Source of the DNA: Centroscyllium fabricii
Taxonomy: Eukaryota
Assembly (NCBI GenBank): GCA_051313645.2
Contig: JBNRSN020000002.1
Coordinates: forward strand, 552,544,001 to 552,608,000
Length of the DNA stretch: 64,000 bases
Direction: 5' to 3'
In this document: one piece after another, positions 15,410 to 50,308 of the stretch
How positions within the stretch are numbered: the first letter of the stretch is position 1
Layout: the number at the start of each line of letters is the position of its first letter
Program-made: the position numbers and the translations under genes
The notes under the pieces: model-generated
Seen by the model: the letters and a program-made list of their open reading frames with translations, nothing else
What the model was told of the DNA's origin: nothing
Database searches by the model: none

Positions 15410-15812
15410 TTGGGCGGGGCTTCCTGGCAATGGCGAGCCTTTCCCACTGATGGGCGGGGCTTCCTGGCAATGGCGAGCCTTCCCACTGATGGGCGGGGCT
15501 TGCTGGCAATGGCGAGCCTTCCCACTGATGGGCGGGGCTTCCCACAGATGGGCGGGGCTTCCTGACGATGTGCGAAGCTAACCGCCAGTGGGTGGAGTTT
15601 ACAGTTCACGGGCGGGGCTTCCCACTGATGGGCGGGGCTTTCTGACAATGGGCAAAGCTAACTGCCAGTGGGTGGAGCTTATAGTTCATGGGCGGAGCTT
15701 CCCACTGATGGGCGGGGCTTCCCACTGATGGGCGGGGCTTTCTGATGATGGGCGAAGCTCACCGCCAGTGGGTGGGCTTACAGTTCATGGGTGGAGCTTG
15801 CCACTGATGGCG
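15410..15812. repeat. Degenerate tandem repeat rich in GGGCGGGGCTT
   Basis: Recurrent units GGGCGGGGCTTCCCACTGAT and GGCAATGGCGAGCCTT. Confidence 0.85.
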
Positions 15813-19562: not shown

Positions 19563-19930
19563 TCCCTCTGTTACACCTGACTGGACTGGAGCTTACTGAC
19601 GTATCGTCAATAAGACTAAAAGACGAAGAGTTACCTTAACTAAAGGCTTTTATTTACTAAAGAATGGAGCGTGGCTTGGCTGAGCTCAGGGCTGTACTGA
19701 CCGGGGGATGGTAAGCAGCCACCTATATACCTGGACCCAGAGGAGGAGTCAGAGGCGGGGTCAGCTGGGGCAAGCACCTGCAGTCAGGTATTTACAGGTA
19801 TGTACAGAGTTAATAGCCAGGTATTTACAGGTACATTATGGTATCATGACAGTGGTATAACCCAGGTTTACCACATTCACCCCTTCTGTAGAATGAGTCT
19901 GGCGGGGTGAAAGCTTGTCCTTGTCCGCCG

Positions 19931-22900
19931 TCAACATTTCGTGATCAGTCTCTCCGGTGGTTTCGCCTGTCGGAGGGACCGACGGGGTGCCGGTTTCAGT
20001 GGTTCCGGCAGCGGGGTCGGGGGCGTGTTGTCAGCCACGGGTGCTGGCGGCGTGGTGTTAGTCCCCCAGTCGTCGGCTGACGATGTCGAGGGCCCCGGTG
20101 TGTGTCGTGTGTGTATAGGCCAGTGGTCGATGAGTGGTGGCTGGCAGAGCCGGGGCTCGGCCGGGGGTTCGGTGTCCGTGATCCCAGCGGGCACCAGCTC
20201 CCTTATAGAGACCGTGTCCTCACGCCCATCCGGGTATGCCACGTATGCGTACTGCGGGTTGGCATGGAGCAGCTGCACCCGTTCCACCAGGGGGTACGAC
20301 TTGTGGCCGTGGACGTGTTTCCTAAGTAAAACTGGCCCCGGGGTGGTCAGCCACGGCGGGAGCACTGTCCCCGAAGTCGATCTCCTGGGGAACGAAAACA
20401 ATTGTTCATGAGGTGTGGCGTTAGTTGTGGTGCACAGGAGAGAACGAATGGAGTGTAGCACTGTGGGGAGGACCTCTTGCCAACGGGAGACTGGAAGGCC
20501 TCTGGATTTAAGGGCCAGGGTGATCGCCTTCCAGATCGTCCCATTCTCTCTCTCTACCTGGCCGTTCCCCCGGGGGTTGTAACTGGCCGTTCTGCTCGAG
20601 GCAATCCCCCGCTGGAGCAGAAACTGACGCAGTTCGTCGCTCATGAACGACAACCCCCGGTCGCTGGGGAGGCCGAAGATCGCGAAGAGCATGATGAAGT
20701 GTTTGATCACCATCGTGCTCGTCATGTCTGGGCAGGGGAAGGCAAAGGGGAAGCGGGAGAACTCGTCAATGACCGTGAGGAAGTATGAGTTGCGGTCAGT
20801 GGAAGGGAGGGGACCTTTGAAGTCCACACTCAGGCGCTCGAAGGGGCGGGTGGCCTTGATGAGGTGCGCCCTGTCTGGCCTGTAAAATTGGGGTTTGCAC
20901 TCAGCACAGACAGGGCATTCTTTGGTCATGGCCTTGATCTCCGTAATGGAGTAGGGGAGGTTGCGGGACTTGACAAAGTGTGCGAGTCTGGTGACTCCCG
21001 GGTGGCAGAGGCTATCGTGGAGGGCCTGCAGCCTGTTGAGCTGGGCACTGGCGCATGTTCCCCTGGACAGGGCGTCCGGGGGCTCGTTGAGCTTACCGGG
21101 CCGGTAAAGAATGTCGTACTCTTAAGTCAAGAGCTCGATCCGCCACCGGAGGATCTTGTCATTCTTGATTTTACCCCGTTGTTTGTTGTTGAACATGAAC
21201 GCCACCGACCACTGGTCAGTGAGCAGGGTAAATTTCTTAGCGGCCAGGTAGTGGCGCCAGTAGCGCACTGTCTCCACGATAGCTTGGGCCTCCTTCTCCA
21301 CTGAGGAGTGGCGAATTTCCGGCCCCTGTAAGGTTTGGGAAAAGAAAGCGACGGGCCTGCCCGCCTGGTTGAGGGTGGCGGCCAGGGCAAAGTCCGATGC
21401 GTCGCTCTCGACCTGAAAGGGAATGGACTCATCAACGGCATGCATGGTAGCCTTGATGATATCTTCCTTAATCCAGGCGAAGGCCGCTTGGGCTTCTACT
21501 GGGAGTGGGAAGACAGCAGCCTTGAGAAGAGGCCGGGCCTTATCCGCGTACTGGGGCACCCATTGAGCATAATAGGAGAAAAACCCCAGGCATCTTTTCA
21601 AGGCCTTGAGATTGTGGGGTAGGGGCAGCTCCTGCAGGGGGCGCATACATTGGGGATCGGGGCCGAGGACCCCGTTTTCCACCACGTAGCCGAGGATGGT
21701 GAGACGATTAGTACTAAAGGTACATTTGTCCTCATTGTACGTGAGGTTCAGACGCCGGGCCGTGCGGAGGAATTTGGCAAGGTTGGCATCATGGTCCTGC
21801 TGGTCATGGCCGCAGATGGTGACATTGTCTAAATAGGGGAAGGTGGCCTGCAACTTATTCTGGTCAACCATTCAGTCCATCTCCCGCTTGAAGACCGACA
21901 CTCCATTGGTAACACCGAAGGGGACCCGGAGGAAGTGGTAGAGTCGCCCGTTTGCCTCGATGGCGGTGTACCGGCGATCCGCAGCCCGAATGGGGAGCTG
22001 GTGGTATGCCGACTTAAGGTCAATGGTGGAGAAGACCTTGTACTGGGCGATCTGATTGACCATGTCCGTGATGCGGGGAAGGGGGTACGCGTCGAGCCCA
22101 GTGTAGCGGTTAATGCTCTGGCTATAGTCTATGACCATGCGCAGTTTTTCACCCGTCTTAACCACCATGACTTGGGCCCTCCAAGGGCTGGTACTGGCCT
22201 CGCTGATCCCCTCCTGTAACAGGCGCTCGACCTCCGTCCTGATAAATGCCCGGACCCCGCACTGTATCGGCGACTCTTGGTCGCAATGGGTTTGCAGTTG
22301 GGGTCGAGGTTGGCGAACAGTGAGGGGGGGTTGACCTTCAGCTTGGACAGGCTGCAGGTTGAGCACTGTGGTAGGTTGGGGTCGGCCCGGCTACTGACCG
22401 TGACGGGGGACAAGGGCCCACCGTACGCCATCGTCACGCTCTGCAGGCGGCACTGGAAATCCAGTCCCAGTAACACCGGGGCGCAGAGCTGCAGGAGGAC
22501 GTACAATTTTAAATTACGATACGTTGAACCCCTGATGGTGAGCGTGGCAGTACAGTAGCCAGTGATGTCCGCCGTGTGGGACTTGGAGGCCAGGGAGATT
22601 TGGTAGTGCGTGGGCATGACCCTCAGTGCGTAGCACCGCACCATGTCGGGGTGTACGAAACTCTCTGTACTCCCGGTATCAAACAGGCAGTTTGTGGCAT
22701 GCCCCTCCACCTTGATCTCCATCATGGAGCTAGTCAAGGGGTGTGGCCTAGACTGGTCGACAGTGGCTGAGGCCAGTATTGTGGGTGTGCAGGGGCCCTC
22801 CGATAGCTAGGGCCCTCTCCGGGGTGAGTGGCAAGATGGCCGCGCTGGAGATGGCGGCGCCCACGGTTCGCACGTGGCTGGCCATTGTCATGGCAAAGAT

Positions 22901-23970
22901 GGCGGCGCCCGTGGTTCGCACGCGGCTGGCCACAACTGTATGAAAGATGGCAGCGCCTGTGGTTCGCACGCAGCTGGCCATGATTGTACCAAAGATGTCG
23001 GCGCTGGTGATTCGCACGTGGCCAGCCGCGCCTGTACCAAAGATGGCGGCGCTGGTGATTCGCACGCAGCCGGCCGCCGCCGTGACTTTACTAAAGATGG
23101 TGGTGCACGTGGTTCGCACGCGGCTGTACGCTGCTAGGCCGCGCTACAGCACCGTACCTGTGGCCACGGAGTGGCATCGTTCGCTTCGCAGGCCGCGCTG
23201 TTGAGTCTGAAGGCCGGGCCGGATCTTCAGACTTTGGCGAAGTGGCCCTCCTTCCCGCACTTCGCACAGATCACGCTCCTCGCGGGGCACAGTTGTCGCT
23301 GGTGTTTCGCCTGACCGCAGAAGTAGCAACTGGGGCCTGCTGGCGTCTTCACAGCTGCTGCTGCCGTCGTTGGGGCCTGCACGGGCCGCGTTTGCAACAC
23401 CCAGGGATTAGATGGGCCCGCGTGGGGGTTATCCGGCGCGTATGAGTCCAAGCTCTAGAGAGCCCCGTCGACCACGTTAGATAGCGAGATGGCGGACTCG
23501 AGGGATAGTTTGTCCTGCTCCAGCAGCCGCTGGCGGGCCTGGCTGGACTTGAGCCCCGCTATGTACGCATCGCAGACCAGGTGATTCGCGTACTCCTCTG
23601 CCGTCACTGCCTGGCAGTCGCAGGCCCGTACGAGGGCCTGGAGCGCCTGGAGGAAATCCTCATTGGACTCACCCGGCTGTTGTCTTCTGGCAGACAGTAG
23701 GTGCCTGGCGTAGACCGAGTTGACCGGGCGCAAATAGTGGCCCTTCAGCTTCCCGACAGTATCTTTGTATGTTTTGGTGCCTCTGATGAGCGAGTACACC
23801 CGGCCGCTGACCCTGGAGATCAGTACTTGCAGTTTGTCTTCCTCGCTGGTTGCTTTCACAGCCTTCATGTAGGCCTCGAAACAGCTGAACCAGTGTTCGA
23901 AGTCGTTCGCAGCATTCGGTGCCTGGGGGTTGAAATCTAGGCGATCCGGTCTCACTGCGCTGCTCTCCAT
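19931..23970 (-). pseudogene. Gypsy gag-pol with stops and frameshifts
   Basis: Gag with CCHC knuckles (CYFCGQAKHQRQLC), protease LFDTGS, RT (IDLKSAYHQ, PFG, YLDN), RNase H (SDASD), integrase (CPVC, VDFKG, DRG, VERENG) in PR-RT-RH-IN order. Confidence 0.93.
22832..23126. repeat. 48-bp tandem repeat (about 6 units) inside Gypsy gag-pro linker
   Basis: Unit AGATGGCGGCGCCCGTGGTTCGCACGCGGCTGGCC plus a variable tail; one unit is 54 bp. Confidence 0.85.
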
Positions 23971-24498
23971 TGTTGAAAAGTTTAGTAAATAAAATTGACG
24001 TATTGTCAATAAGACTAAAAGACAAAGAGTTACCTTAACTAAAGGCTTTTATTTACTAAAGAATGGAGCATGTCTCAGCTGAGCTCCGGGCTGTACTGAC
24101 CGGGGGATGGTAAGCAGCCACCTATATACCTGGACCCAGAGGAGGGGTCAGAGGCGGGGTCAGCCAGGGCAGGCTCCTGCAGTCAGGTATTTACAGGTGT
24201 GTACAGAGTTAATAGCCAGGTATTTACAGGTACATTATGGTATCATGACAGCGGTATAACACAGGTTTGCCACACTTACCAAACTCAAATGGCTTGAACT
24301 CTAACTCGGCCTCATAAATTAGCTGAACTGTTTCAAATAGCTGGTGATCCTGCAGCAAAATAATTACTTTTCCAATCCCCCAGGTGAAAAATATCCTGCA
24401 AAAGCCTTTTGTTAACTCGTAAAAAATGAACAAATCAATCAAATCAAGCTTTTCCACACTGCTTCCTCATTGGCAACAGTTGCACACGACCGATCCCT

Positions 24499-24790
24499 AC
24501 TGTCTGCTGGTGTCACATGGCCGTGACTGCTGTCTGCTGGTGTCACATGGCTGAGACTGCTGTCTGATGGTGTCACACGGCCGATCACTTCTGTCTGCTG
24601 GTGTCACATGGCCGTGACTGCTGTCTGCTGGTGTCACACGGCCGTGACTGCTGTCTGCTGGTATCACATGGCTGAGACTGCTGTCTGCTGGTGTCACACG
24701 GCCGAGACTGCTGTCTGCTGGTGTCACACGGCCGAGACTGCTGTCTGCTGGTGTCACACGGCCGATCACTGCTGTCTGCTGGTGTCACAC
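24499..24790. repeat. 30-bp minisatellite, about 10 units
   Basis: CTGTCTGCTGGTGTCACA(C/T)GGCCG(A/T)GACTG repeated. Confidence 0.92.
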
Positions 24791-48726: not shown

Positions 48727-50308
48727 CAGGTTGAGCACCGGTAACCCGGCACCTTCGGGACCAGGCCGGTGCCGGACCACTGAAAATTCCGAATCACTGA
48801 AGGTTCAGGGAGAGCGCGCAGTAGAACATTCCCCGGGGCCCGGAGCGCGCGGGTAGAACACTCCCCGGGAGGGAGGCCGGCGATTGAACACTCCCCGGGG
48901 CCCGGAGCGCGCGGGTAGAACACTCACCGGGGCCCGGAGCGCGCGGGTAGAACACTCCCTGGGGCCCGGAGTGCGTGGGTAGAACACTCCCCGGGAGGGA
49001 GCCCGGGGATAGAACACTCCCCGGGGCCCGGAGCGTGCGGGTAGAACACTCCCCGGGGCCGGGAGCGCGCGGGTAGAACACTCACCGGGGCCCGGAGCGC
49101 GCTGGAAGCACACTCCCCGGGGCCCGGAGCGCGCGGGTAGAACACTCCCCGAGGCCCGGAGTGTGCGGTAGAACACTCCCCGGGGCCCGGAGCGCGCGGT
49201 AAAACAACCCCCGGGGCCCGGAGCACGTGGTAGAACACTCACCGGGAGGGAGCCCAGGGATAGAAACCTCCCCGGGGCCCGGAGTGCGCGGGTAGAACCC
49301 TCCCCGGGGCCCGGAGCGCGCGGGTAGAACACACCCCAGGGCCCAGAGCGCGTGGGTCAAACCCTCCCCGGGGCCCGGAGCGCGCGGGTAGAACACTCAC
49401 CGGGGCCCAGAGTGCACGGGTAGAACACTCCCCGGGGCCTGGAGCGCACGGGTAGAACCCTCCCCGGGACCCGGAGCGCGCGGGTAGAACACTCACCGGG
49501 GCCCGGAGCGCGCTGGAAGAACACTCCCCGGGGCCCGGAGCGCGCGGGTAGAACACTCCCCGAGGCCCGGAGTGCGCGGTAGAACACTCCCCGGGGCCCG
49601 GAGCGCGCGGTAAAACAACCCCCGGGGCCCGGAGCACGCGGTAGAACACTCACCGGGAGGGAGCCCAGGGATAGAAACCTCCCCGGGGCCCGGAGCGCAC
49701 GGGTAGAACACTCACCGGGGCCCAGAGTGCACAGGTAGAACACTCCCCGGGGCCCGGAGCGCATGGGTAGAACCCTCCCCGGGGCCCAGAGCGCGCGGGT
49801 AGAACACACCCCAGGGCCCAGAGCGCATGGGTCAAACCCTCCCCGGGGCCCGGAGCACGCGGGTAGAACACTCACCGGGGCCCAGAGTGCACGGGTAGAA
49901 CCCTCCCCGGGACCCGGAGCGCGCGGGTAGAACACACCCCAGGGCCCAGAGCGCGTGAGTCAAACCCTCCCCGGGGCCCGGAGCGCACGGGTAGAACACT
50001 CACCGGGGCCCGGAGCGCGCAGGTAGAACACTCCCCGGGGTCCGGAGCACGTGGGTCGAACCCTCCCCGGGGCCCGGAGCGCTCAGGTAGAACACTCCCC
50101 GGGAGGGAGCCCGGGGATAGAACACGTACAGAATGTAAAAAAAACAGAAACCCAAACGCCCGACACCTTTGGCGCTCGCTCACCCTTCGCAGGAAACGGT
50201 GGCGCCACTGAGTGGCTGCTCCACAAACTGAAGACCGCCGGTTTCGATTCGTGCCGAACCACTGAAGGTGCCGGACCATCGGGTGCCGGATTACCGGGGC
50301 TCAACCTG
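48727..50308 (-). mobile_element. Tc1/mariner-type MITE expanded by an internal minisatellite
   Basis: TA|CAGGTTGAGC...GCTCAACCTG|TA; arms homologous to 16915-17218. Confidence 0.88.
48820..50125. repeat. About 32-bp GC/CpG-rich minisatellite (about 40 units) with a 411-bp higher-order duplication
   Basis: GGGTAGAACACTCCCCGGGGCCCGGAGCGCGC; variant GCTGGAAG recurs at 49101 and 49512. Confidence 0.95.

Follow-up and report, generated by a model that had tools for sequence, protein, structure and literature searches.

Results

A decayed Gypsy element with a primer site complementary to its own LTR

The window analyzed here, a stretch of 64,000 nucleotides (nt) from Centroscyllium fabricii (contig JBNRSN020000002.1, positions 552,544,001 to 552,608,000), carries on its minus strand a decayed Gypsy retrotransposon at 24274-19597. 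We assign the element to Ty3/Gypsy from its long terminal repeats (LTRs) with TG...CA ends, its target-site duplication, its purine tract, and its domain order of protease, reverse transcriptase (RT), RNase H, and integrase. The 5' LTR (23996-24274) and the 3' LTR (19597-19875) are each 279 nt long, differ by 16 mismatches over that length, and are bordered by GTAAG target-site duplications at 24275-24279 and 19592-19596; the same LTR ends, again with target duplications, are found at loci L233 and L240. A polypurine tract precedes the 3' LTR (19876-19887), and similar tracts are present at loci L121, L125, L127, and L138. Stops and a frameshift interrupt the region that encodes gag through integrase (19931-23970), whose gag ATG, at 23970, lies 25 nt past the LTR. 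The RT motif (21818-21829, in the RT frame 21122-21871) is YLDN rather than YxDD; among 120 homologues it has N in 90 and D in 22, with 8 not parsed. Similarity to the Ty3 RT is weak (E value of 2e-15, 60 bits), and a Pfam search found no chromodomain in the integrase frame of the window or in six full-length homologues, unlike in the Tf1/sushi group.

Directly after the terminal CA of the 5' LTR, the element has a single A (23995) and then TTTTATTTACTAAA (23994-23981), with no TGG. This primer-binding site, which thus begins one base after the LTR, has an exact 14-nt complement inside the LTR at 24060-24047; the complement is present again in the 3' LTR, where it has no partner downstream. 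When the LTR was shuffled with its dinucleotides preserved, the longest anchored complement was 9 nt, and none of 3,000 shuffles reached 10. The paired LTR segment contains the poly(A) hexamer AATAAA (24048-24053). Upstream of it is a TATA box (TATATAG, 24122-24128) that starts at 24128, 68 nt before the 5' edge of the segment, and 31 nt after the TATA is an initiator-like TCAGT (24095-24099). The A of this motif at 24097, 51 nt from the end of the paired segment, is the predicted RNA start (24097-24101 for the subfamily in the window), and the capped leader that would act as the primer RNA (24047-24097) would be 51 nt long here and 51 to 54 nt long in relatives. Two small hairpins flank the helix. 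GCCTT/AAGGT (24032-24046) lies directly 3' of the predicted cut and roughly covers the stretch of the repeat (R) region that would be left for the first strand transfer, while TTGAC/GTCAA (23995-24009; arms at 24009-24005 and 23999-23995) spans the LTR end. An Rfam search found nothing matching within 23800-24400. An initial annotation of this DNA had described an element lacking a tRNA primer site, the 14-nt complement with its AATAAA in both LTRs, the hairpin over the LTR end with the gag ATG about 25 nt on, and a TATA-like TATATA about 65 nt upstream of the paired segment. Each of these descriptions holds.

Covariation of primer site and LTR across the clade

We searched the genome with a pattern that fixed the first five pairs only, for which a control pattern matched 43 times, and found at least 175,395 junctions between a 5' LTR and a primer site, about 1 per 41 kb of 7.2 Gb. 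[quoted passage not shown] Positions 6, 7, 8, 9, 10, 11, 12, and 13 were paired in 96, 95, 89, 96, 91, 95, 94, and 95 junctions, respectively, compared with an expectation of 29 to 52 at the variable positions 6, 8, 9, and 12, and all four pair types are present at position 8. Position 14 was paired in 33 junctions (24 expected; shuffle maximum, 36), and pairing at positions 15 to 23 was at or near chance.

To follow changes on the two sides of the helix, we used a tree made from the unique 3' (U3) region only, with 176 distinct copies that had enough flank, drawn from 184 junctions. When G was gained or lost at position 8 of the LTR, the primer site followed in 9.2 of 10 independent pairs (median p of 0.004); at position 15, it followed in 1.3 of 10, and pairs were too few for position 6 and, at position 8, for A. 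Among paired rows, the tree required 20 paired double changes at position 8 and 16 at position 9, against a median of 16 single changes at gag third codon positions, although recombination between subfamilies may inflate such counts. Because double changes are as common as single neutral ones, one side appears to be copied from the other.

The same pairing, with different letters, was found in three more families of this genome that we reached with ray, shark, and other gag queries, and at 22 of the 30 loci in the most distant of them, at least 12 of 13 positions are paired. Metagenome contigs yielded 43 loci, 39 of them with a gag start; of these, 28 pair at 12 or more of 13 positions and represent 12 sequence types, and the 11 misses consist of 4 without the region, 1 with a changed TTT, and 6 that pair at 7 to 11 positions. 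The 28 pairing loci invariably have CA, one base, and TTT, their loops are 32 to 72 nt long, and in several families the helix extends to 15 to 17 bp. For metagenome families L121 and L127, the LTR ends were confirmed through the 3' LTRs and duplications. Covariation between the primer site and the LTR, which the initial annotation proposed looking for across families, is therefore found in many subfamilies and in metagenome relatives, and the complementarity is kept in relatives with compensatory changes.

Homologues occur in rays, sharks, a crab, a sea anemone, Seison, and Trichinella, the closest named ones being those of rays and sharks; the viral contigs searched contained no relative. 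Two protein matches, P0043 and P0074, are homologues of this animal retrotransposon filed under bacterial metagenome-assembled genomes, where host contamination is likely. At loci L183 and L191 (upstream of gag), L109, L120, and L178, the LTR end of another family is joined into an LTR of this group, and in L183 and L191 the foreign end is joined at the identical place within the paired segment.

Primer sites start with TTT in all families, not TGG, and they lack the tRNA 3'-end complement of the Saci2/lennie, CsRn1, and Mag type. Saci2/lennie was considered as the clade of this element and rejected as tRNA primed; lennie is described as primed by tRNA-Leu (PMC4558846). The longest match of the primer site to an internal tRNA sequence was 4 to 6 nt, in a comparison with Lys(TTT) and Cys(GCA) genes only. 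Among the 176 copies, decayed ones included, there are 56 distinct 13-nt primer sites, and a fixed tRNA therefore could not serve them.

Predicted RNA start and flanking hairpins

In 83 of the 98 junctions, a TATA is located 79 to 86 nt upstream of the LTR partner's 3' end, and the initiator consensus has 85 matches 51 to 53 nt from that end and none at 16 nt or less. The distance from promoter to partner is constant despite loops of variable length, most of them 48 to 62 nt. This geometry places the predicted RNA start about 52 nt before the 3' end of the paired segment. Contigs from two sequencing runs cover the flanks in the way DNA would and display neither starts nor ends. A start at an AGT 11 nt from the primer end, the length known from Tf1, was also considered; we lowered its standing because positions 12 and 13 covary too and no initiator consensus is found there. 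A splice acceptor at TTTAG was rejected, since the letters that would be intronic pair and covary.

The hairpin 3' of the predicted cut has a stem of at least 4 bp in 44% of the 98 junctions versus 10% of shuffles, and GCC or ACC follows the paired AAA in most metagenome relatives. At the LTR end, the arms are TTGAC/GTCAA in 64 junctions, TTGAT/ATCAA in 12, and TTGAT/GTCAA in 10, counts in which the TCAA part was imposed by the search pattern. By eye, this second hairpin is not general in metagenome relatives.

Constraint and predicted occlusion of the poly(A) hexamer

The first letter of the hexamer is A in 97 of 98 junctions and the second is A or T in all 98, giving AATAAA or ATTAAA, while the next upstream base is free. 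Pairing alone would not require these fixed letters, so the hexamer is constrained beyond pairing and looks functional. In families L121 and L127, the LTR has no poly(A)-like hexamer other than the paired one. One clear fossil of polyadenylation was found: L424:1240-1540 is the 3' end of an element (purine tract, U3, and R) with 17 A residues 16 nt past the hexamer. A looser search gave 11 matches at 9 places, among which only L424 was read in context. The sequence that follows the 17 A residues in L424 is unrelated and repeat-like, and the locus is a retrocopied or captured mRNA end.

In folding predictions for the window copy, the probability that the hexamer is unpaired was 0 to 0.12 in the 5' leader versus 0.79 to 0.97 at the 3' end. 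Across the 98 junctions, the hexamer was less accessible with the primer site in 90, with means of 0.11 versus 0.58. By these predictions, the helix would conceal the 5' poly(A) hexamer and leave the 3' one open. Poly(A) signals so near the cap are often poorly used anyway.

Overrun copies as probable fossils of failed copying

We next describe copies in which the LTR and one A are followed by the antisense of the leader past 13 nt, here called overruns. This genome has 756 pattern matches to such junctions, and the control had 0. Among the first 100 listed, 90 copies were read. Thirteen of them end exactly at the initiator A, 5 end 1 to 6 nt past it, 21 end earlier with at most 3 per position, 48 run into U3 (47 by script, plus L351), and 3 could not be placed. 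L346, which the script counts among the earlier stops, stops at the initiator with one mismatch, after which a normal leader and gag resume.

Between them, the 13 exact stops are joined to 6 acceptor sequences, located at 5 sites. Eight share a single gag site, where the microhomology is 7 nt; because the final base in these eight is the T of the leader, not the C of the acceptor, the break falls on the initiator base. Among the other exact stops, the overlap is 2 nt in two, 1 nt in one, and an ambiguous 6 nt in one, and for one the acceptor was not found. The exact-stop copies have differing flanks and belong to at least three LTR subfamilies, and they may descend from fewer events. We considered a cap-templated extra C after the stop and rejected it, as the C is the acceptor's in L344, L357, and L369.

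Among the overruns of the U3 class, 12 of the 90 are palindromic insertions with an intact 5-bp target duplication, and 8 of the 90 continue beyond U3 into the purine-tract complement. DNA fold-back accounts for the palindromes and not for the stops at the initiator, which instead point to an RNA end. The palindromic mini-elements are about 500 bp long, consist of the LTR, one A, and an inverted U3-R, and have 5-bp target duplications (loci L345, L348, L349, L354, L362, L363, L375, L395, L401, L412, L418, L421, and L422). They would pass for small DNA transposons or fold-back elements.

Other sequences in the window

Within the gag-protease interval of the element, five to six degenerate 48-nt tandem units lie inside the coding region (22849-23132, minus strand). 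Minisatellite arrays occupy 24497-24789, 48822-50224, and 15413-15795, their periods being roughly 30, 32, and 20 nt. The remaining window is dense in dispersed repeats, which resemble ends of CR1 long interspersed elements.

Discussion

The initial annotation had read the helix as a self-primer, and the 56 distinct 13-nt sites with their conserved, covarying complement support that reading; we consider self-priming in some form to be very probable. It had also placed the LTR partner away from the cap, which is supported by the TATA and initiator geometry and by the aberrant copies that stop at the initiator, and it had proposed that the helix hides the 5' poly(A) signal but not the 3' one, with which the folding prediction, the constraint on the hexamer, and the one polyadenylated fossil are consistent. 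The helix in its fixed register, its covariation, the promoter elements, and the overrun products are seen in the DNA itself.

The form of self-priming that we favor, and judge to be probable, is priming without tRNA by a capped leader of about 52 nt that is cut after AAAA and annealed through its last 13 bases. Under this model, transcription would start at the initiator A, and the helix would form while the primer site is being transcribed, flanked by the small hairpins. A cut after AAAA, at the junction with the small hairpin, would provide the 3'-OH and could be made by the element's RNase H if the process is as in Tf1. Minus-strand DNA would then copy the unique 5' (U5) region and the remaining 15 to 18 nt of R before jumping to the 3' end; an R of 15 to 18 nt is similar to the short R of some retroviruses. 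Plus-strand DNA would copy back into the primer, usually keeping 13 to 14 nt, such that the primer site would be renewed from the LTR in every cycle. Overruns of this last step would yield the fossils, some halting at points within the leader, some stopping hard at the cap, and some folding back through U3 to insert as palindromes.

Several points weigh against this model. We infer the RNA start, the cut, and the occlusion, and the start, the cut, and the poly(A) site are all read from DNA. The retention of just 13 to 14 nt in normal copying has no explanation from the data. By eye, the metagenome families show no consistent TATA spacing or promoter, and several have noncanonical hexamers (GTTAAA, TTTAAA, TGTAAA, and ATCAAA). 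The tendency of the primer site to track U3 over the adjacent gag is weak (28 versus 33 and 20 versus 22 changes), with the direction as predicted. The eight exact stops at one site may not all be independent events, and among six overruns of the window subfamily none ends exactly at 51 (the ends are at 41, 45, and 55, with three running into U3). LTR remnants beginning at the predicted cut form no clear peak (of 53, 5 retain GCCT and 12 retain xCCT). Finally, a 13-nt plus-strand end that reannealed to a second, uncut RNA would likewise stop at the cap, and for that reason the fossils fix the RNA start better than they fix the length of the primer.

That length is where the first alternative differs. 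The primer might be short, only the 13 to 14 paired bases, produced by a second, downstream start as in Tf1 or by an additional cut at the helix boundary, with the longer fossils made by the plus-strand end reannealing to other RNA or DNA copies. The sharp edge of pairing at 13 to 14 nt and the conserved G at position 10 and A at position 11 fit such a primer, as does the precedent of the 11-nt, cap-terminal primer of Tf1 (PMC7175516); start-site choice is also said to regulate a retrotransposon (PMC5341516). We nevertheless regard it as unlikely, because the conserved TATA and initiator lie upstream and no initiator consensus lies close to the partner's end, position 13 is T in most copies, overruns go beyond position 14 and end at many points of the leader, and several metagenome families have helices of 15 to 17 bp.

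A second alternative, which we find improbable, would supply the primer in trans or from the 3' end, either as early-polyadenylated transcripts of the 5' LTR trimmed to the duplex or as the 3' LTR segment of the full-length RNA. The 5' copy, however, is separated from the primer site by just 32 to 72 nt and would, by prediction, be the first to pair, and a primer from the 3' end offers no reason for the stop at the initiator, even though early-terminated leaders would stop at the cap too. The overruns that extend past U3 to the purine-tract complement would suit this alternative but are equally explained by a strand jump after leader copying. Also in its favor are the position of the primer end on a functional-looking hexamer and some copied leaders, such as that in L441, that differ from the adjacent LTR at several letters. 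A last possibility, that the helix only hides the 5' poly(A) signal or folds the leader while a tRNA fragment or another host RNA primes, would draw on the predicted occlusion and on the limitation of the tRNA comparison to Lys and Cys genes but is highly improbable given a site that begins one base past the LTR end in every family examined, the diversity of its 13-mers, and 756 junctions that continue as antisense of their own leader from exactly the primer-site point.

Self-primed reverse transcription has been shown for Tf1 and is assumed for its kin, and the primer is the very front of the RNA. [quoted passage not shown] Like the elements described here, Tf1 and Tf2 of Schizosaccharomyces pombe and the chromoviral Tf1/sushi group of Ty3/Gypsy, including Tcn1, are described as having a primer site complementary to their own LTR, as using no tRNA, and as requiring an RNA cut for the 3' end of the primer (PMC7175516, PMC6317226). 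In contrast to the cap-terminal 11-mer of Tf1, the 13 paired bases here would end about 52 nt past the predicted start, and they carry the poly(A) hexamer. Predictions of self-priming extend to the plant Tcn1 and TAR lineages, and for TAR (Houba and Osr-1) the prediction likewise comes from a complement of at least 10 nt between the LTR and the site that follows it (PMC6317226). The TAR lineage differs in belonging to the Copia superfamily and to plants. In the fungal GalEa Copia elements, the Conserved Hairpin Site is likewise a self-complementary feature that replaces the tRNA site, but as described it pairs within the internal region and has no complement in the U5 of the LTR, whereas the partner here is in the LTR (PMC5445492). 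The Cigr-1 clade of Ty3/Gypsy elements, of Ciona and molluscs, is listed for molluscs in a paper whose main text has no match for PBS or primer (PMC6238403). Our literature search, which did not extend to Repbase, found no description of the arrangement reported here. Some animal Gypsy families are presumably called self-priming in Repbase entries, and the complement itself may already be noted there.

In the poly(A) hairpin of HIV-1, RNA pairing hides the AAUAAA of the 5' repeat. That hairpin is local to R, is present at both ends, and is separate from the tRNA primer site. In the elements described here, by comparison, the strand that would hide the hexamer is the primer site itself, and it is present at the 5' end only.

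The arrangement would be a second design for self-priming, in a separate lineage, in which an internal primer end coincides with a poly(A) signal. To the complement itself, the present analysis adds the predicted RNA start and likely primer length as read from fossils, together with the palindromic mini-elements and the evidence that the hexamer is constrained. Taken together, the data allow us to suggest, tentatively, that a widespread clade of animal Gypsy elements fashions a tRNA-like primer out of its own transcript, a capped and folded leader of about 52 nt that is cut where its poly(A) signal ends and has 13 bases annealed; that one helix acts as the primer, the template for the primer site, and a poly(A) switch for the 5' end only; and that hundreds of failed products map both ends of the primer. 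The reading of overruns as fossils needs nothing but genome sequence to map start sites and primers, and it is usable on any abundant LTR family. The lineage is large, with about 175,000 junctions in one genome. If the model is true, the helix is a structural answer to the need to use an LTR poly(A) signal at one end only, and an element that has no need for a host tRNA would escape silencing aimed at tRNA sites.
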